12,945 nt of DNA from a virus (lineage: Duplodnaviria; Heunggongvirae; Uroviricota; Caudoviricetes), in IMG/VR virus record IMGVR_UViG_2778261277_000020, positions 1 to 12,945 of that record. The stretch is one strand, 5' to 3'. The notes under the pieces are model-generated. The model made no database searches. It was not told the DNA's origin and was given only the letters and a program-made list of their open reading frames with translations. A program made the position numbers and the translations under genes. Positions 1-7,713 of this stretch are shown one piece after another. How positions within the stretch are numbered: the stretch's first letter is position 1; each line of letters begins with the position of its first letter.

Positions 1-1026
1 TTACTTGGAATATTTTCTTGGAATATTTTCAGGTAACGGGACATCAAGTGTTGGTGAAACTTTAACCTTCCTGTCATAGATTAGCACTTGCCCTTCGGTT
101 TTGTGACCAGAGAAAAGTTGCTTATCCCGGCTGCTTCCTTCATAGTCTGAAATTCCTTTCGCCTTCAGATCATGAAAGGTGAAGTCGGTTAAAATACCTG
201 AAATTTTGCCTGCGCGATTTCTTGCTTCTACCCACATTTCGTTAAAGCCTTTGTACATATATCGGTTGCCGTATTGATTGCTGATTACATAGGCGGATGT
301 TGGTAACTGTTTTGCTTTTTCGATCGCCGCCTGTAATCGTGGACTCCATGCTTTTATCTGTTTTTTCCCTGTTTTCCCTTGCTGGATAAAGATCCCGTCG
401 TTTCCAATCTGCTCCCATTTCAGCGATAACACATCGGAAACCCTCGCTGCACACAGATAGGCAATTTCCATTGCGATAAAAACAGGAAGAGGTGCAACGC
501 TTAATACTGCCTGGTATTCTTTGTCGGTTACATATCGTTCGCGGTTTTTGGCCTTGAATTTACTTACACCTGCACATGGGTTACCCTTCACGTACCCTCG
601 CTCATACCCCCAACTGTAAACGCGGGACATACTGCTTTTTTCATGGTTGGCTTGCGTTTTACTCTGTTCCCCTCTCTTGTCCATGTATCGACGGATGTGT
701 TCTGGTTTTATGGAATCTGCCGGCACCTTACCGAATACGGCAAGCAACTTTTTTTGATGTTGCAGATAATCTTTTTGTGTTCTTGGACTGAGGTCACTGT
801 AATAGGCGCTGGCGAGGAATTTTCCCCACAAACGACCGAATGTCATTGCGCGATCGCGATTATTTACAGTTTCCTCATACTTTTTCCATAAAGCAGCTAA
901 ACCATCCTTGATGGCGGTTAGTGTGACAGATTCTCTGGATGTTGGTTTCCATACATAACTATATTTATTTGGGTATACATTTGGAGGTAGTTTTTCGTGT
1001 TCAGGATTTTTCCTTCGTCTTCCCAT
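1..1026 (-). CDS. int: Phage integrase, tyrosine recombinase of the lambda Int family (complete, 341 aa)
   Basis: Full-length minus-strand ORF; N-terminus MGRRRK... resembles lambda Int N-terminal arm-binding region; C-terminal part has H/R/Y-containing segments (FHDLKAKG, GHKTEGQVLIYDRK) typical of the catalytic domain; start codon overlaps the xis stop (TAATG). Terminal position in a leftward operon, as in lambdoid phages. Confidence 0.9.
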   Translation of the reverse strand: MGRRRKNPEHEKLPPNVYPNKYSYVWKPTSRESVTLTAIKDGLAALWKKYEETVNNRDRAMTFGRLWGKFLASAYYSDLSPRTQKDYLQHQKKLLAVFGKVPADSIKPEHIRRYMDKRGEQSKTQANHEKSSMSRVYSWGYERGYVKGNPCAGVSKFKAKNRERYVTDKEYQAVLSVAPLPVFIAMEIAYLCAARVSDVLSLKWEQIGNDGIFIQQGKTGKKQIKAWSPRLQAAIEKAKQLPTSAYVISNQYGNRYMYKGFNEMWVEARNRAGKISGILTDFTFHDLKAKGISDYEGSSRDKQLFSGHKTEGQVLIYDRKVKVSPTLDVPLPENIPRKYSK

Positions 1027-1229
1027 TAGATTGCACCAAAATTCGGCTCTACCTCGCGTGGTGGTAAAGTTTTATTGCAGGTAAATAGATCCCGGCTGAC
1101 AATCGGTTTGCCACTACGATTGGTATAGAACGGAAGCCCGTTTTCCGTTAACCATTTTCGCTGGTGGCTTGCATATTTGCAGCCCGTTAATATCAGCAAT
1201 TCATCTTCGGTTAAAAATAAGCTGCTCAT
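1026..1229 (-). CDS. xis: Excisionase-like small DNA-binding protein (67 aa)
   Basis: Small basic ORF immediately upstream of, and translationally coupled to, int (stop/start overlap TAATG at 1024-1028). Position and size fit Xis; family assignment from memory only. Confidence 0.6.
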   Translation of the reverse strand: MSSLFLTEDELLILTGCKYASHQRKWLTENGLPFYTNRSGKPIVSRDLFTCNKTLPPREVEPNFGAI

Positions 1230-1246
1230 AGCTATATCTCATAACC

Positions 1247-1272
1247 GCCGCTAACTATATACGGTTAGCGGC
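1247..1272 (-). other. Perfect 9-bp inverted repeat (GCCGCTAAC / GTTAGCGGC, 8-nt loop) in the exonuclease-xis intergenic leader
   Basis: Read directly from sequence; no U-tract follows on the transcribed (minus) strand, so it is not a canonical intrinsic terminator. Confidence 0.4.
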
Positions 1273-1287
1273 AATTAGGGTTGAACA

Positions 1288-3672
1288 TTAAAAATCAGCC
1301 TGACTCGGGATCAGTTTTTGCCAGATAACTGAAACGTATTTTGCCTGGTAACGGGCGTCATCAAGTGCATTATGGCGCTCACCTTCGAATGGAATAGCCG
1401 TTCTGGCATCGAAGTCTATGGCTTTCCCCAGCTCAACGATTGTGCGTACATCGCGATCGTTGTGGTAGCGCCACGGGCAGGGGATCCCCTGCCGTTCATA
1501 TGAACGGCGTAAAATTACGTTGTCGAAGTTGGCTCCATTTCCCCAGACCTGAACAAAAAATTCACCGGAGTTTTCGGCGATAAATTCCCGCAATTGCAGT
1601 AGTGCATCATCTAACGGGATTTCATCGGTCAGAATGGTAGATTGCGCCTCGCGTGATTGCTTAAGCCACCATTTAATGGTGCCACGATCAATGACTCCGC
1701 CAGCAGTATCCAGATCGATGGTCTTACTAAATTCCGGTCCCATATCTCCGGTTTGCGGATCGAAAAATATTGCACCTATTGAGATAATCGGCGCATCAGG
1801 ATTTTTTCCCATCGTTTCAAGGTCGATCATTAGATGGTCACACGTCCTGCTGGTGGATGTGATAACGTGATGACCATTCACCGTAATTAAGGGATCTGTC
1901 GTCTCGCCAGTTTCACTATCGCTGGCGTGGTCCTGAGCGCTGCCAGCATTCTCCTTGTGTGGATGTTCAGCGCCTTCCATTTCCTCCGGATCTTTTTCCT
2001 GAGCTTCAGCCTGATTTTCTTTATCGAATGTTTCCTGGTATGTTGCGTCGCCCATCACTGCGCCACAATCAGGGCAGTTGCCTCCTCCCGGCTGACCGCA
2101 GGTATCGCAGACTTTCTCCTGCACAGGTTGATTTTCGACGTCGCTATTTTCCGTTTTTTCGACTTCATCTGAGAGGATTTGATGGCCGGGAATCCATTTC
2201 GGATCATTCGGGTCGCTAATCCCTTCAACAAATTCTCCGCGAGAGGCAGCCAGCAACTTATCGGCGTCAGGCTGGCTGACGTTTGCTGCCTGCATAATTT
2301 TGTTTACTTCGTTAGCGGTAACTTTTACCTGATTGACGGGATTTACCTGTGACTGAGCATCCAGCGGCTGCGTGTCCTGATGATGTTCAGTTGCATCCGG
2401 TTCCATTGTTTCAGCCGCTGCCTGTTCACATGCCATTGCGCCAGATGGTTGCGGTTTTTCTGCATCATTTTTTTCTTCTTCTGTTTCTTGCCCGGCAGCC
2501 AGCTCGCGGTTTATTTCTTCCAGAATATCTTTTTCCGGTGTATGTCGGGCAGCCGTGAGTGTTTCCTGGCTGGGGTTCTCGTGATCAGTCTCCGTTAAAT
2601 GGGCGTTGATATACCCCTGAAGGCGTCCCGGGTAGTGATAAAATTCAGGGTGTGCGCTTCGGATAAGTGCAAAAATAGCGGCGCGAGAGTAGTCCAGGAT
2701 ACCCGGGGTTGAGCGAAGTGCTGCTGACCACTCCCTGAACGGACTTTCTTTCTTCCGGACGATTTCTTTTGCGCGGCGATAAACGCTGCCAGGAATGTCA
2801 TAAATATTAAAATCCATCGGAAGCGTGGCTGCTGCAATCTCCAGATCCAGTGTATCGAGGGTGTGTACTAAATCCGGATTACGATCGGTTTTGTTTCCGC
2901 CTCCGGCATTTGCACCGGAAGCCGTACGGGTGATACGCGAAACACGATTTCCTTTCATCCACTCTTTTGTCAGCAGGCCGCGATCGGTGTAGTCAGCGTC
3001 CAGGTATGCTTCGAAAAAAGCAGTCATTAATCCCAGACTGGAATTAACGGGATTAGGGAAAACTTTGTCAGTGTCGCGAACCAGTTTGTGGTGGTCGCGA
3101 AGTTCCAGTGGGTCGAGCAGGCTGGTTTTGTGCGAAATAGCCAGGGCAGTAACTGCCGGTAGCTCTTCAGCCCGAGCGATATGTAATGCCTGAAGTTCAT
3201 CTCTTGAAACGTGTGTTACTGGTTTTTCGCTGCCGTGTTGAGCAAGCCAACGGATTGCCACCTCCTGACCGGAAACTGGCAGGAGCATGCTCTCCTCAAT
3301 CTCCGTCATGTCTTCGCCGTTAACATTGGTATTTTCGGTGCTGGCTGGTTTGTTCTGCACAGAGGGAGATGGCGCGGTGAATACCATTGTGATGCCATCT
3401 TCACCGCCTTTTTCATAGCGGTTACAGAATTCGGTATCAAACACGCCTTCTGGTGGAAGGTCATTCACAACAGGCAAATGGACGCGAACAGGTTTTTTAA
3501 AGTCCTCTTCGTCGTAACCAGCATCATCCATTGCGACATTACCGCGGGAAACTGCAACAGATAATTTTTTTGCTGTAGTCCAGTAAAAACCTCCTTTAAT
3601 ACCGAGACGTTTTCTGACTTTGTCATTTTTGGCTTCGTAATGGAGTGCAATGTCTTGTTTGTCAGTGCTCAT
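1288..3672 (-). CDS. Exodeoxyribonuclease VIII-like protein (794 aa): RecE-like N-terminal/central region fused to a C-terminal DEDDh (DnaQ-like) 3'-5' exonuclease domain
   Basis: ATG at 3672 with GAGG 9 nt upstream. Central segments ([57 protein letters not shown], Cys-x2-Cys...Cys-x2-Cys [17 protein letters not shown]) match my memory of the E. coli Rac RecE N-terminal region. The C-terminal ~180 aa carry DEDDh motifs (MIDLETMG; [10 protein letters not shown]; HNALDDARY). Confidence 0.8.
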
Positions 3673-3707
3673 TGTTTTTAACCTCAGCTAAGATTAAAAT
3701 TCCTCCG

Positions 3708-3767
3708 GAATGATGAATAAATGTCCCAGGTTCATCATTCTGGCCTGCACTGAGTGCAGGCCTTTTT
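3708..3767 (+). terminator. Two adjacent hairpins; the second (GGCCTGCAC...GTGCAGGCC followed by T5 at 3763-3767) has plus-strand intrinsic-terminator geometry
   Basis: Hairpin A: 10-bp perfect stem GAATGATGAA / TTCATCATTC (3708-3740). Hairpin B: GC-rich stem 3742-3762 then TTTTT. The T-run is on the plus strand, antisense to the leftward operon. Confidence 0.4.
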
Positions 3768-3772
3768 ACCAT

Positions 3773-4048
3773 TCAGATTTCATCTTTTAGTTCTGTCCCA
3801 ATCAGAGAGGCCAGATACATGTCTTTTTTTTCTGCAGGCAGATTCTTAATGATATGCACCAGACACATTTTTTTAACACCATCGTTAAGTGTTTTAACAT
3901 TTCCTGAGAAACCGTAGATATCAACCACAGTGAATGGGGTTTCTTTATTTTCTGTCTTAATTACGTAGCCAATACGCTTTTCTTCAAGATTAACCTCGTG
4001 AACAATATTATCAGCAGTAACAGTAGTGACTTCATAACTGGTAATCAT
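3773..4048 (-). CDS. Hypothetical protein (91 aa)
   Basis: ATG at 4048 preceded by AGGAGAAAAAT (strong SD); ORF track start at 4096 is an upstream non-ATG extension. No recognisable motif. Confidence 0.55.
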   Translation of the reverse strand: MITSYEVTTVTADNIVHEVNLEEKRIGYVIKTENKETPFTVVDIYGFSGNVKTLNDGVKKMCLVHIIKNLPAEKKDMYLASLIGTELKDEI

Positions 4049-4132
4049 ATTTTTCTCCTTAATTAAGGTTGAGTGAATCCCTGCCATTGCTGGCATATAA
4101 GAATGAAACCGTACATTTGTGACGTAGCTGCT

Positions 4133-4324
4133 TTAAATACTTGTCGTGACTTCTTTATTATCCTGACGAATAACTTTATCAACCTGATAACAGTTACCTG
4201 GAATTTTCTGTTCTTCTGCAGCAGCCATGCATTCTTTCATGGAGTTGTATATTCCTGTAACTATATCAACCGGTTCACCGGAAACAAGAAAAACAGTCAT
4301 AACAAGCGCGAATACTGTATTCAT
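4133..4324 (-). CDS. Small protein (63 aa) with hydrophobic N-terminus (signal peptide or single TM helix), two Cys
   Basis: ATG at 4324 with GGAGA 5 nt upstream; start overlaps stop of upstream gene (TGATG). N-terminus MNTVFALVMTVFLVSG is hydrophobic. Confidence 0.5.
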   Translation of the reverse strand: MNTVFALVMTVFLVSGEPVDIVTGIYNSMKECMAAAEEQKIPGNCYQVDKVIRQDNKEVTTSI

Positions 4325-4509
4325 CAGTGTCTCCAGAAAATACCAAGTCTGAGAAGAGCCATTCTGGAAAGTATGGAATTATCATTGAGAAAATAAGGCT
4401 CATATTTCCTCATATTAATGGCATCTTCAGTAAACTCACGGTTACTGATTTGAACACCAATTTCAAAACAACCTTCAGATGTATTGATGTTGGGTAATAA
4501 CGTTTCCAT
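4324..4509 (-). CDS. Hypothetical protein (61 aa)
   Basis: ATG at 4509 with GAGGAA 8 nt upstream; lies 14 nt downstream of the rha stop; same-strand operon context. Confidence 0.45.
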   Translation of the reverse strand: METLLPNINTSEGCFEIGVQISNREFTEDAINMRKYEPYFLNDNSILSRMALLRLGIFWRH

Positions 4510-4523
4510 TATCGTTTCCTCGA

Positions 4524-5078
4524 TCAATGGATATTAAGTAACTGCTCCACGGTCATATTTTTAATTACGTCCCTGTTCACAAGCGTCCATCCCTGTTTCT
4601 CCAGATAAAAGCGGAAGGTATCCAGGGTGCAGACCATTGCACCATCAGGAACGGTTTCAGTGAATTTGATGTTGCCGTGTTCGTCGAGACGGATAACCAG
4701 GGTACGTCCGTCCCCGTGAATCATTTTGTCGGGAGACGGGGCGTTATTCTGGCGCAGTTCTTTCTCCATGCGATCGAACTCAGCGATGTAGGCTTCTTTA
4801 AATGCAGCGGCTTTTTTGCCGGTGAAGCCCATCACCAGGAAAACGAAGCCGTTTTTGGTGATTTGGTACATAGGGAGTTTGCGTCCTGTTGAGTCGGTGT
4901 ATTCGCTCGACACAAAATTGTGCTCAGTGAATTTTGCTGAACAGTCCAGATTGCGAATTTTATCCAACACTCGTTCGTGGCGTTTACCAAAGAACTCGGC
5001 GATCGCAACAGACGTAGTGACAGCGCGACCATTTTCGATGGTTACATCAGGGTGATAAATGGTAGGGGTAGTAGCCAT
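4524..5078 (-). CDS. rha: Rha-family phage regulatory protein (184 aa)
   Basis: N-terminal ~100 aa (IENGRAVTTSVAIAEFFGKRHERVLDKIRNLDCS...MYQITKNGFVFLVMGFTGKKAAAFKEAYIAEF) match the Rha domain as I recall it. ATG at 5078 with GGAGG 8 nt upstream. The 282-aa ORF in the track is an in-frame upstream extension that contains a terminator hairpin. Confidence 0.8.
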   Translation of the reverse strand: MATTPTIYHPDVTIENGRAVTTSVAIAEFFGKRHERVLDKIRNLDCSAKFTEHNFVSSEYTDSTGRKLPMYQITKNGFVFLVMGFTGKKAAAFKEAYIAEFDRMEKELRQNNAPSPDKMIHGDGRTLVIRLDEHGNIKFTETVPDGAMVCTLDTFRFYLEKQGWTLVNRDVIKNMTVEQLLNIH

Positions 5079-5244
5079 GATGGCAGCCTCCGCGATGAAT
5101 TTAATTAACTCACCACCAGAGGTGCTAATCTCATGGGTGGTGAGACGCACAGGGTTAGCACTACCGGTCATCACGGAACCCGGCCAGCCTTGCGGCTGCC
5201 CTGCACGCCTCACCATAATGCGAATGTGGCTGTGCTTAACGCAT

Positions 5245-5267
5245 AAAAAAACCGCCTGAGCGCGGTT
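5245..5267 (-). terminator. Minus-strand intrinsic-terminator-like hairpin (6-bp stem AACCGC / GCGGTT, 6-nt loop) followed by U7
   Basis: Plus-strand sequence AAAAAAACCGCCTGAGCGCGGTT at 5245-5267; on the minus strand this is stem-loop plus TTTTTTT. Confidence 0.5.
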
Positions 5268-5948
5268 ATGCGCCGTGATTGACTTCGGGGTGCTAATCCC
5301 GGCACCCGTTTTATGAGGTGCAGATGAACTATAATTCCACCCGTACTGGTTTTCAATAGCTACATTCAACATTTTCTCTTACCCTTCATCACCGAAGTGA
5401 ACTTTGTTGATGCAGTGCCTGGTGCCTCCAGGTGACGTTAACCAGTTAACAATTAACGCCGGAATACAGAAGTATGCCCGTTACGCCCCGTAAAAGACCA
5501 CTTTACGGTTTTAACTGTTCCGCGTGCGCTTAGCCGCATTCACCGCATCACAAAATTCACTTTAAAAAGGGTGGCAGAGCAGTCACGGAGTAGAACTGAT
5601 GCCACCAAAGACTACACATGGGTATTGTGGCGGGGCTGTCACTTAAGCGTATGGTCAACCTGACAACCCGGTGCATTTTCTGGAGCAATGGAGGAAACCC
5701 CAGCCATACTTACCGCCGCGCCATTTCGCGGATTGCCACAACCGGAAGCGCACGTTCGAGGAAATCTAACGACAAGCCTTCTAAGGGAAAGAGCTTCGCC
5801 GTACGCTTTCGCGTTATGCCCTGACTTTTCAGGGAAATATCCTTTCAGTAAACTGTCAGTACCGGATTCTTATCCGTGTCCGGCGCACGACCGCACGTGA
5901 CAGCGTGTTGGTCTCCATTTTTAACCCAGAACCTCAATGGAGGATAAA

Positions 5949-6158
5949 ATGCCAAACAAAAAAAGAAATCCGCTTATTGAAAAACAGATTGAATGCCTGG
6001 TAAATCAACTCAGGCAATCAGGGTTATTAAAAACTCATTCAGAGTTGAGGCTCACAGAATCAGCATTCGACGATAAATTAAATAATGTCCTTTATAATGG
6101 CATTATTGATTTTAATCGTTCTGTTGGTCGCCGCGGCCCTGCTGGTGTTTCCTTATAA
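5949..6158 (+). CDS. Hypothetical small protein (69 aa), AT-rich
   Basis: ATG at 5949 with GGAGGA at 5939-5944; convergent with the next gene, stop codons back to back (TAA 6156-6158 / TAA on minus at 6159-6161). Confidence 0.5.
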   Translation: MPNKKRNPLIEKQIECLVNQLRQSGLLKTHSELRLTESAFDDKLNNVLYNGIIDFNRSVGRRGPAGVSL

Positions 6159-6809
6159 TTACCAGTCAATCCAGAGCGGACCGTGTTCAGCGTAAATATA
6201 ACTGTACACATCCAGATTATATTTGTGGTCTGTTAAGAACAGGCCGCAAATACATGCCGAAGCTTCCAGGGCAGCGGCTCTGTTACTGAATAACCATGTA
6301 GCAACATTCCAGCGTTTTTCTGCATCCCAGTCTTTCTCAAGGCCTGATACCATGAAGAAACCGTTAGTGTTGCCATCAAATAATTCTGTTTCCAGATTTT
6401 TAAGCAATGCCTGATGGACTCTTGCCAGGTATTCCGCCGGAATTTCGCCACGAATTCTGATGAGATTGTCATAAACAAACATGTTCCCCGCATATGGCGA
6501 TTTTTCTTTCTTGTTTTTTAAACCAGCATCATGAGCAAACTGATCAATTTCTTCTTCCGTTGGTTTCGTATTGATGTTTTGCGCTGTCGTTTCTGCAATT
6601 TTATTTGCCACACTCTCTGAGTCGTGTTTATTTATAGACGCACAGAAATACAATCCGGTAAACGCATCGCGCACATTACGAGCCATATTATCAGTGTCTT
6701 TTTTCGTTACCGATTCCAATTCAAGTTCGTTCAGACGATGACGAAGTGTGTGTGCTGCAATCTCTTGGATTGAAGGAGGTAAATCTTTAAATTCCATCGT
6801 CAACCTCAT
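6159..6809 (-). CDS. Hypothetical protein (216 aa from ATG 6809; 212 aa if ATG 6797), AT-rich, no TM segment
   Basis: ATG at 6809 overlaps the stop of the upstream 50-aa gene (TGATG); the alternative ATG at 6797 has GAGG 7 nt upstream. No motif I can name. Confidence 0.65.
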   Translation of the reverse strand: MRLTMEFKDLPPSIQEIAAHTLRHRLNELELESVTKKDTDNMARNVRDAFTGLYFCASINKHDSESVANKIAETTAQNINTKPTEEEIDQFAHDAGLKNKKEKSPYAGNMFVYDNLIRIRGEIPAEYLARVHQALLKNLETELFDGNTNGFFMVSGLEKDWDAEKRWNVATWLFSNRAAALEASACICGLFLTDHKYNLDVYSYIYAEHGPLWIDW

Positions 6810-6961
6810 CAGTCAGTGTTTCTGGCTAACCAGCGACGCGCGCCAGCTGCGGTTTTAAACGTTTTGCTTCTGGTATACGTCATCGCGGTAAACGTGCCGT
6901 CCAGGTTGGGGAATACTCCGCATACCAGAGATTCGTTGTTGCCAAGATTGAGCGTATCCAT
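6809..6961 (-). CDS. Hypothetical small protein (50 aa) with basic C-terminus
   Basis: ATG at 6961 with GAGG 5 nt upstream; first gene leftward of the OL-like palindrome; stop overlaps next start. Confidence 0.45.
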   Translation of the reverse strand: MDTLNLGNNESLVCGVFPNLDGTFTAMTYTRSKTFKTAAGARRWLARNTD

Positions 6962-7234: not shown

Positions 7235-7522
7235 TCAGATAGAGGAGGGAAATTGTCGGCGAGCATGTATCACGCTTACAATCTCAATGCTTGAAGCAGC
7301 TACTCTGTACAGGATTATGTAGTTAGGGTGGGTCACTATCTCTCTCACCCCTGAAACCCGTTCGCTTAGTGGATATAGGTACGGATGCTCAGATAGAGGT
7401 AATACCGATGTTTCAATGCGTATTTTTAGTCTGCGCGCTGCCGGTGGGTTCTCCTTGGCGATGTAAGTTATGATCTGACGCAAATCATCGCGAGCAGATG
7501 GTAGCCATAAAATGGGTAACAT
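7235..7522 (-). CDS. parE: ParE/RelE-family toxin (95 aa)
   Basis: Sequence LRQIITYIAKENPPAARRL...IVSVIHARRQFP is typical of ParE toxins; start overlaps the antitoxin stop (TAATG). Confidence 0.85.
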   Translation of the reverse strand: MLPILWLPSARDDLRQIITYIAKENPPAARRLKIRIETSVLPLSEHPYLYPLSERVSGVREIVTHPNYIILYRVAASSIEIVSVIHARRQFPSSI

Positions 7523-7713
7523 TACTCGCTCCTGTTAGTTACAACGATTTGAGCAATAAGATTTTCCATTTCAGCCATTACCTCGTCATGTGGAATTGCG
7601 GGACGAGGGTCTGCAAGGCTCGACGCTACTTTAGCGCGCAACCATTCGTTGTAACTGTTTTCTTGTTCGATAGTTTCGAATTCTGAAACTATCGGAGAAA
7701 GGGCTGTACCCAT
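7522..7713 (-). CDS. paaA: PaaA2-like antitoxin (63 aa)
   Basis: SEFETIEQENSYNEWLRAKVASSLADPRPAIPHDEV matches my memory of PaaA2 from the E. coli O157 paaR2-paaA2-parE2 module; GAGGAG SD 7 nt upstream of ATG 7713. Confidence 0.75.
   Translation of the reverse strand: MGTALSPIVSEFETIEQENSYNEWLRAKVASSLADPRPAIPHDEVMAEMENLIAQIVVTNRSE

Follow-up and report, generated by a model that had tools for sequence, protein, structure and literature searches.

What does a stretch of prophage DNA specify that is rich in stable hairpins and carries no credible open reading frame (ORF)? The question is raised by about 560 bp (positions 5380-5940) of a 12,945-nucleotide stretch of viral DNA assigned to the Caudoviricetes (here the window), in which the original prediction saw a candidate structured RNA or regulatory leader, with a cargo cassette as its right-hand boundary. 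The region is the known dicF locus of a lambda-like prophage, encoded on the opposite strand, and is in that sense ordinary rather than new; as dicF is among the oldest known bacterial small RNAs (sRNAs), there is no case for following the region up as a new RNA. More specifically, positions 5889-5395 of the minus strand very probably constitute the dicF cassette carried by a lambdoid prophage of the Qin/Rac type, i.e. the non-coding part of an early-left, dicB-type operon that yields the Hfq-dependent sRNA DicF. Identity, strand, homology, non-coding character and the predicted or conserved helices are taken from the sequence, while the processing enzymes and cut sites are those of E. coli K-12, for which the cut-site numbers are quoted second-hand via PMC10448788 and PMC5069750.

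A known small RNA on the minus strand

A scan of the whole window against Rfam at gathering thresholds identified three tandem sRNA genes on the minus strand, DicF, isrK and C4. The DicF match (RF00039) reaches 61.1 bits, above the gathering score of 48 (E 5e-12), and spans model positions 1-52 of 52; together with the alignment to K-12 dicF, it places the 52-nt DicF core at 5620-5569. The Rfam search that had been proposed as a check thus found a curated sRNA above threshold, and the notion of a structured, non-coding RNA is borne out by DicF and by the structured precursor sequences inside the region. The strand is a different matter: the stems had been described on the plus strand, while both the Rfam match and the excess of folding place the RNA on the minus strand. 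Minus-strand RNA from 5900 to 5560 folds at -121.3 kcal/mol (z -3.09), a value that none of 100 shuffled sequences equalled; the RNA from 5568 to 5390 reaches a z of -5.43, with a minimum free energy of -69.3 kcal/mol for the downstream domain described below, and the entire span from 5900 to 5390 a z of -4.14. Plus-strand RNA (5560-5900), in contrast, folds no better than shuffles (z -0.38, 34 of 100 as good). The folding excess is strand-specific, and the structured RNA is that of the minus strand. Merely counting terminator-like hairpins across the region is uninformative (four found against 2.7 +/- 1.4 in shuffles).

Homology leads to the same locus. Positions 5398-5889 are about 83% identical to many lambdoid phages by megablast, including phage Tritos with its annotated "DicF antisense sRNA", and in the K-12 prophage Qin the intergenic region ydfC-dicF-dicB corresponds to 5889-5398 base by base. 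The dicF module is present in 4,386-4,727 of 5,426 complete E. coli genomes (>80%), the median genome having two copies, and 116 copies of the cassette, 104 of them distinct, were assembled from IMG/VR prophage contigs, genomes and annotated records. Searching species-representative genomes for a 16-base DicF core yielded mainly chance matches in unrelated phyla; the real matches were Escherichia/Shigella records and one soil metagenome-assembled genome, and all that this 16-base scan supports is that the exact DicF core is rare outside Escherichia/Shigella. Inspected RefSeq records of homologous loci are without a dicF feature, and some carry an antisense hypothetical protein in its place. 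For ORF-free, hairpin-rich prophage DNA, a comparison of both strands with Rfam should precede any flagging.

The claim that the region contains no credible ORF holds. The ORF listing has just two overlapping plus-strand frames, 5618-5824 (68 aa) and 5688-5900 (70 aa), and on the minus strand a single 43-aa ORF starting with TTG (5557-5688); none of the three matches a PHROG family. The composition, with a GC content of 0.46-0.54 across the region, is indeed not AT-rich. That one or both plus-strand ORFs encode small proteins is hardly credible, even though the frames exist, most homologues have an antisense ORF of 51 aa, and RefSeq records produced by PGAP carry a 54-aa plus-strand "hypothetical protein" in some of them, such as strain MS7163. 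Persistence of a frame is to be expected anyway at more than 95% nucleotide conservation. Variable columns, moreover, are spread evenly over the three codon phases in each of the four conserved blocks of 97 homologues (21/19/21, 6/7/6, 6/9/6 and 22/24/26), with no period of three, so that the conserved coding frame with synonymous-only variation that would speak against a structured RNA is absent. Indels of 1, 4 and 14 nt between alleles fall inside the plus-strand ORFs, the frames and lengths of which vary, and on the plus strand neither a folding signal nor a promoter was found, other than a weak site overlapping the start codon of a neighbouring 73-aa ORF. Neither strand displays an excess of third-position variation or a protein family match, and the even phase variation, the indels, the varying frames and the missing PHROG match indicate that the MS7163 protein is probably spurious.

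Domains of the cassette and their conserved helices

Folding of the full alignment with RNAalifold (97 sequences, 536 columns) gave an implausible consensus that missed the DicF terminator, with the variable patches misaligned; this consensus was discarded, and the domains were folded one by one. Covariation is thin throughout, the sequences being highly conserved with few two-sided changes in the cassette. Compensatory and wobble changes do occur in the DicF terminator, in the closing helix of the leader and in the downstream stalk.

In the direction of transcription, the cassette begins with an upstream domain (5889-5749), delineated by its fold and by alignment with K-12 Qin and phage Tritos, which forms several local hairpins. 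One of these, a CGC-GAAA-GCG tetraloop hairpin, is invariant; the 5' half of the domain comes in three or more different versions when homologues are compared. The domain runs into a conserved element, (A/C)CGUGCGCUU (5756-5747), to which the 5' end of the 190-nt RNase III product of K-12 maps by alignment transfer (approximately window position 5748). Folds and inverted repeats offer three candidate partners of CGUGCGCUU (5808-5799, 5888-5883 and 5533-5525), all of which show no compensatory changes, and single variants break pairs.

The sequence that follows (5748-5621) is predicted to form a four-helix leader of the long DicF precursor, with helices between 5742 and 5624 on which the single-sequence and RNAalifold folds agree. 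Its closing helix, GUUGUGGC/GCCACAAU (5742-5735 / 5631-5624), has canonical pairs in 71-73 of the 73 distinct sequences and shows alternations between U.G and U-A, G.U and G-C, and G-C and G.U. Inside it lie H1 (5731-5727 / 5720-5716), a variable arm H2 (5714-5670), which is a different hairpin in other alleles including K-12, and H3, a 9-bp stem (5669-5661 / 5641-5633). H1 is the CCGCG/CGCGG stem that had been reported some 10 nt further to the left; the hairpin exists, with its true arms at 5716-5720 and 5727-5731. A short single-stranded linker, the location of the RNase E cut in K-12, joins the leader to DicF.

Within DicF, the intrinsic terminator (5606-5564) consists of an outer stem, GGUGGCA/UGCCACC (5606-5600 / 5576-5570), an inner stem of 4-5 bp and a UUUUU tract (5568-5564). 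The Rfam placement and the structure line of the alignment identify it with a hairpin of the original prediction, GGTGGCA (5570-5576) / TGCCACC (5600-5606), of which the stem was correctly read, while the 23-nt "loop" in fact contains the inner stem. All 12 pairs are kept in each of 73 distinct homologues. Relative to K-12, pair 5604-5572 has changed from C-G to U-A, a compensatory change, and pair 5601-5575 from U.G to C-G, a change from wobble to Watson-Crick.

Downstream of the terminator, a domain at 5562-5395 is closed by a stalk of 21-22 bp (5562-5541 / 5417-5395) that is found by single-sequence folding, RNAalifold and the search for inverted repeats alike. Its interior holds a GCGGC/GC.GC helix (around 5537-5522), a 10-bp hairpin (5460-5434) and a CCUGG-AGGCA-CCAGG hairpin (5432-5418); a nut/put-type antitermination element was considered for the last of these and dropped, as no Rfam family supports it. 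In 11 diverse homologues folded with RNAalifold, all 21 of 21 stalk pairs are intact, with alternations between G.U and G-C and between U.G and U-A and one change from C-G to U-A, and the inner 10-bp hairpin has one change from G-C to A-U. This 11-sequence fold replaces a column-wise count of stalk pairs in a MAFFT alignment, which was skewed by the shift of a 1-nt bulge between alleles. The RNase III cut that generates the 72-nt form of DicF in K-12 maps, by alignment transfer, to 5549/5548, halfway along the 5' strand of the stalk; with the 3' end of the 72-nt form inside it, the stalk is what RNase III would naturally cleave to make this end.

The downstream domain also contains a variable insert with the hairpin CCGUAAA/UUUACGG (5508-5488), which only some alleles possess and K-12 lacks. 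The original prediction had correctly noted this hairpin on the plus strand (CCGTAAA 5488-5494, TTTACGG 5502-5508, followed by TTTT at 5509-5512), and the terminator scan lists it as well, with seven pairs, three of them G-C, and then TTTTAACTGT. A role as plus-strand intrinsic terminator serving rightward transcription is nevertheless very improbable. The stem is weak and the T-run short, terminator-like sites in the region occur at chance level, and there is no rightward transcription upstream of the hairpin to terminate, all genes from 1 to 5372 being on the minus strand. Besides being absent from K-12-type alleles, the hairpin varies in a strand-specific manner: variants such as CAGUAAG/UUUACUG (L085) and CGGUAAA/AUUUGCUG (L164) keep it partly via G.U pairs that are valid only in minus-sense RNA and would be C-A mismatches on the plus strand, which argues that it is probably not a plus-strand terminator. 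By these properties it does not qualify as one.

The downstream domain bears a likeness to STnc100 and PasD, which the literature describes as prophage sRNAs of pathogenic E. coli and Salmonella. In a search of 701 nt at relaxed thresholds, minus-strand positions 5557-5403 match STnc100 (RF02076) with 30.8 bits against a gathering score of 47 (E 8e-5, model positions 22-154 of 206), so that family membership is not supported at Rfam's own threshold. A long closing helix, a GGUGAAU motif and a CACC-NGG-AGGCA-CCN-GGCAC hairpin are common to both, with a U-A against G-C difference in the stem of the shared hairpin. STnc100/PasD and the dicF cassette also have the same carriers, namely lambdoid prophages found in E. 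coli and Salmonella. The described STnc100 copies, however, are located elsewhere, e.g. 75 nt downstream of stx2 (PMC12370729), and an independent transcript is not known for the dicF-proximal element. The domain may nonetheless be a distant relative, or a stable RNA in its own right.

Taken further, the domain could be a stable STnc100/PasD-like sRNA, or a cis-regulatory 5' UTR element for the next cistron, that is released or activated by RNase III. This is rather unlikely, and either version would be compatible with the dicF cassette rather than exclusive of it. The match is sub-threshold but non-random, with the closing helix and the CACCNGGAGGCACCNGGCAC hairpin in common; the fold is very strong (z -5.43); two near-invariant blocks of about 55 and 60 nt are more conserved than the neighbouring genes; and STnc100 copies are expressed in EHEC (PMC5331693). 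The next cistron is dicB in Qin and the Rha antirepressor module in the window, and in both contexts 14-23 nt separate the end of the stalk from the start codon that follows. The match nonetheless fails to reach the gathering score, with only model positions 22-154 of 206 aligned, a scan found neither an independent promoter nor a terminator for the domain, and the K-12 literature on the region reports DicF species and dicB mRNA only (PMC10448788, PMC5069750).

A minority allele of dicF

The dicF gene of the window is a minority allele, in which the first 14 nt read CAUGUGUAGUCUUU where K-12 has UUUCUGGUGACGUU, and the RNase E linker is 14 nt shorter than in K-12 due to a deletion where RNase E cuts in K-12. 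Of 5,426 complete E. coli genomes, 183 match a 45-nt allele-specific query, none of them with the allele annotated, and it accounts for six of the 116 extracted cassette copies. Over 161 nt, the allele is 100% identical in many genomes, and it recurs in IMG/VR prophage contigs with differing flanks. No published description of it was found in the literature covered, which does not extend to the relevant EHEC paper.

In the literature, pairing with ftsZ and pykA has been assigned to the 3' part of DicF, and pairing with xylR to its 5' part. RNAduplex predictions against the K-12 ftsZ sequence from -60 to +40 suggest that the first of these interactions is kept, with nucleotides 18-46 of the window allele pairing across the Shine-Dalgarno sequence and the AUG at -20.6 kcal/mol, compared with -18.2 for K-12 DicF. 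The xylR interaction is predicted to be lost: nucleotides 4-18 of K-12 DicF form 13 contiguous base pairs with xylR +6 to +20 (-20.3 kcal/mol), as opposed to an interrupted duplex at -12.3 kcal/mol for the window allele. The xylR-pairing 5' arm is a property of the K-12 allele and not a criterion that defines the Rfam family.

The first 14 nt and the RNase E linker depart from the K-12 type, and xylR pairing is predicted to be lost (-12.3 kcal/mol, interrupted, against -20.3 with 13 contiguous bp), which could in principle mark a decaying, non-functional relic of a cryptic prophage that has escaped constraint. We regard this as improbable. Identical or near-identical copies are carried by 183 complete E. 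coli genomes, the allele recurs in IMG/VR contigs with different flanks, the changes in its terminator are compensatory rather than disruptive, and the ftsZ-pairing loop is intact. Furthermore, the prophage looks complete here, with integrase, excisionase, exonuclease and replication genes.

Operon context, proposed processing and implications

The genes around the cassette are those of a dicB-type operon. DicF lies between a ydfA-type gene and dicB, in the layout of K-12 and Tritos: on one side, a YdfA homologue (82% identical to K-12 YdfA; minus strand, probable start at 6961) and, further upstream, a DicA-like helix-turn-helix repressor (8142-7741, minus strand, 28% identity), and on the other a dicB homologue (4527-4324, minus strand; Pfam DicB 7e-33, 69% identity to K-12 DicB). 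Other genes of the window include DUF1482/YdfD, a RecE-type exonuclease, ORFs of the size of an excisionase and of an integrase, and replication genes. A promoter-like sequence on the minus strand, TTGACA-18-TAGATT (7168-7139; 10 of 12 matches in a consensus scan), is situated just after a terminator-like site (7216-7201) that follows a ParE gene and before the YdfA homologue; from its sequence and position, it is probably where the leftward operon starts, as dicBp's counterpart. The region is not a leader of the cargo cassette to its right but belongs to the leftward early operon. Between the 216-aa gene that follows the YdfA homologue and the cassette, a convergent plus-strand 73-aa ORF (5937-6158) intervenes, so that continuity of transcription into the cassette is assumed; a consensus scan for a plus-strand promoter of this ORF found only a weak site (9 of 12) overlapping its start codon.

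On its downstream side, the cassette is separated from dicB by an isrK-C4-Rha antirepressor module, in which isrK (5321-5245) and C4 (5220-5133) were identified on the minus strand by Rfam. The terminator proposed as the left boundary of the region (5245-5267, minus strand) is real and is that of the isrK gene, as found by Rfam and the terminator scan. The module has its own minus-strand promoter, TTGAAA-17-TATAGT (5356-5328). On either side of C4 there are sites, two in all, to which its loop is complementary, and three sets of alleles show covariation of the loop with these sites. The same insertion before dicB is found in E. coli JNE132847 and others. The position of isrK and C4 directly upstream of a Rha-type regulator, and the complementarity of the C4 loop to these sites, are shared with the immI region of P1/P7 (c4-icd-ant) and with isrK-orf45-anrP of Gifsy-1; what differs is that in the window a dicBF operon surrounds the module, which lies between dicF and dicB.

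The closest known system is the dicBF operon of K-12 Qin, which has the same order of repressor, ydfA, dicF, dicB and ydfD, with further genes in between. The roughly 490 bp of non-coding sequence align throughout, with a mean column identity of 82% among four sequences, and the terminator hairpin, the ftsZ-pairing loop, the conserved leader and the downstream stalk are the same. The differences are the replaced 5' 14 nt of DicF and the missing 14 nt of its RNase E linker, a different hairpin at H2 of the leader, and an insert that is 13 nt longer in the window and carries the CCGUAAA hairpin. In addition, ydfB and ydfC are replaced in the window by the 216-aa ORF and the convergent 73-aa ORF, and an isrK-C4-Rha insertion separates the cassette from dicB.

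In K-12, DicF is cut from a polycistronic transcript that starts at dicBp, no internal promoter having been found; a 190-nt species owes its 5' end to RNase III and a 53-nt species to RNase E (PMC10448788), and the 3' end arises either by intrinsic termination or by RNase III cleavage of read-through transcripts to give the 72-nt form (PMC5069750). By analogy, the same processing steps would be expected to operate in the prophage of the window. Transcription would start at the PL-like candidate promoter (7168-7139), downstream of the DicA-like repressor, pass the ydfA homologue and the 216-aa ORF and enter the cassette. RNase III would cut within the conserved CGUGCGCUU (around 5755-5747) to leave an intermediate of about 180 nt that comprises the four-helix leader and DicF, and RNase E would cut the single-stranded linker to create the mature 5' end. 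The 3' end would be made by the intrinsic terminator (5606-5570 and the five U) or, in read-through transcripts, by RNase III in the 21-22 bp stalk (5562-5541 / 5417-5395), with read-through continuing into isrK-C4-Rha, dicB and ydfD. The loop and 3' region of mature DicF would then pair with the ribosome-binding site of ftsZ, and cell division would be blocked.

RNase III processing stalks that are formed from flanking sequences are a feature of rRNA precursors, the early mRNA of phage T7 and the N leader of lambda. Here as there, distant segments pair over about 20 bp, and cleavage of the resulting helix separates functional RNAs from a polycistronic transcript. Unlike in these systems, the stalk of the dicF cassette encloses a downstream non-coding domain and not the sRNA itself, and its cleavage gives an alternative 3' end, that of the 72-nt form, in competition with intrinsic termination.

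The dicF cassette is modular, and each of its parts recombines independently of the others: the upstream domain, the four-helix leader, the seed, the terminator and the RNase III stalk. Tentatively, the allele of the window may represent a distinct and recurrent form of dicF in which prophage recombination has swapped the 5' arm and the linker, left the ftsZ-pairing loop and the terminator in place, and thereby changed the secondary targets, with xylR lost and others gained, and in which read-through has been rewired into isrK-C4-Rha; this is possible, though doubtful. If it were true, the inhibition of cell division could be coupled to antirepressor-driven cross-talk between prophages. A minority allele with a replaced 5' seed provides a natural experiment on how the targets of a prophage sRNA change.

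Overlap of isrK and C4 with the Rha reading frame

In the antirepressor module of the leftward early operon, isrK (5321-5245, minus strand) and C4 (5220-5133, minus) both lie within the first third of a 282-aa minus-strand ORF (5372-4524), whose RefSeq homologues are labelled 'Rha family phage regulatory protein'. Residues 14-108 of this ORF match Pfam Phage_ASH (PF10554), and the same stretch is translated isrK and C4. Across this part the frame is open in seven homologues, yet variable columns are spread over the three codon positions as 25/27/27. Rha itself probably starts at ATG 5078 (minus), which is preceded by GGAGG. Given this probable start, the even spread and the position of the Phage_ASH match, the N-terminal extension may represent translated RNA genes, and the same may perhaps hold, in part, for Phage_ASH.

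C4 was compared between the window (about 5300-5110, minus) and homologous loci L002, L072, L118, L126, L166 and L188. Two flanking sites, one in the loop of the second isrK hairpin and the other immediately upstream of the Rha ribosome-binding site, are complementary to the C4 loop and co-vary with it. The window has GUGCUAA as its loop (sites UUAGCAC), five loci have UUUCCAC (sites GUGGAAA) and L072 has GUAGCAA (sites UUGCUAC). Judged by sequence, these loop and site sets are three putative specificity alleles, resembling P1/P7 immI heteroimmunity.

The DicF precursor and its flanking genes

When the entire dicF cassette is folded to its minimum free energy, CAUGUG of the allele-specific DicF 5′ arm (5620-5615, minus) pairs with CACGUG (5899-5894, minus) at the extreme start of the upstream domain. 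This predicted pairing could sequester the DicF seed within the precursor; it could also have arisen by chance. At the homologous loci inspected (L002 in JNE132847, L192 in MS7163; hits H56-H100), dicF is absent as a feature from the RefSeq/PGAP records, K-12 excepted, and in MS7163 a 54-aa 'hypothetical protein' is called antisense to the upstream domain.

What the original prediction termed a cargo cassette (5937-6809) comprises one ORF per strand, convergent and with zero spacing: a plus-strand ORF of 73 aa with a good SD (PHROG 4274), probably starting at 5949, and a minus-strand ORF of 216 aa (PHROG 2151). GC content falls to 0.36-0.44 here. Before reaching dicF, the leftward operon has to traverse the 73-aa gene, which lies antisense to it. 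Farther right, genes for a 63-aa PaaA2-type antitoxin and a 95-aa ParE toxin (pair at 7235-7713, minus) directly follow the DicA-like repressor gene, between it and the candidate early-left promoter; a terminator-like hairpin (7216-7201) comes after the pair.

Mosaic composition of the prophage

The window is contiguous in none of the complete RefSeq E. coli genomes, the top match reaching 71% coverage at 88% identity, and its source may lie outside that collection. Hundreds of genomes nevertheless contain single modules with 90-100% identity; the prophage is a mosaic.
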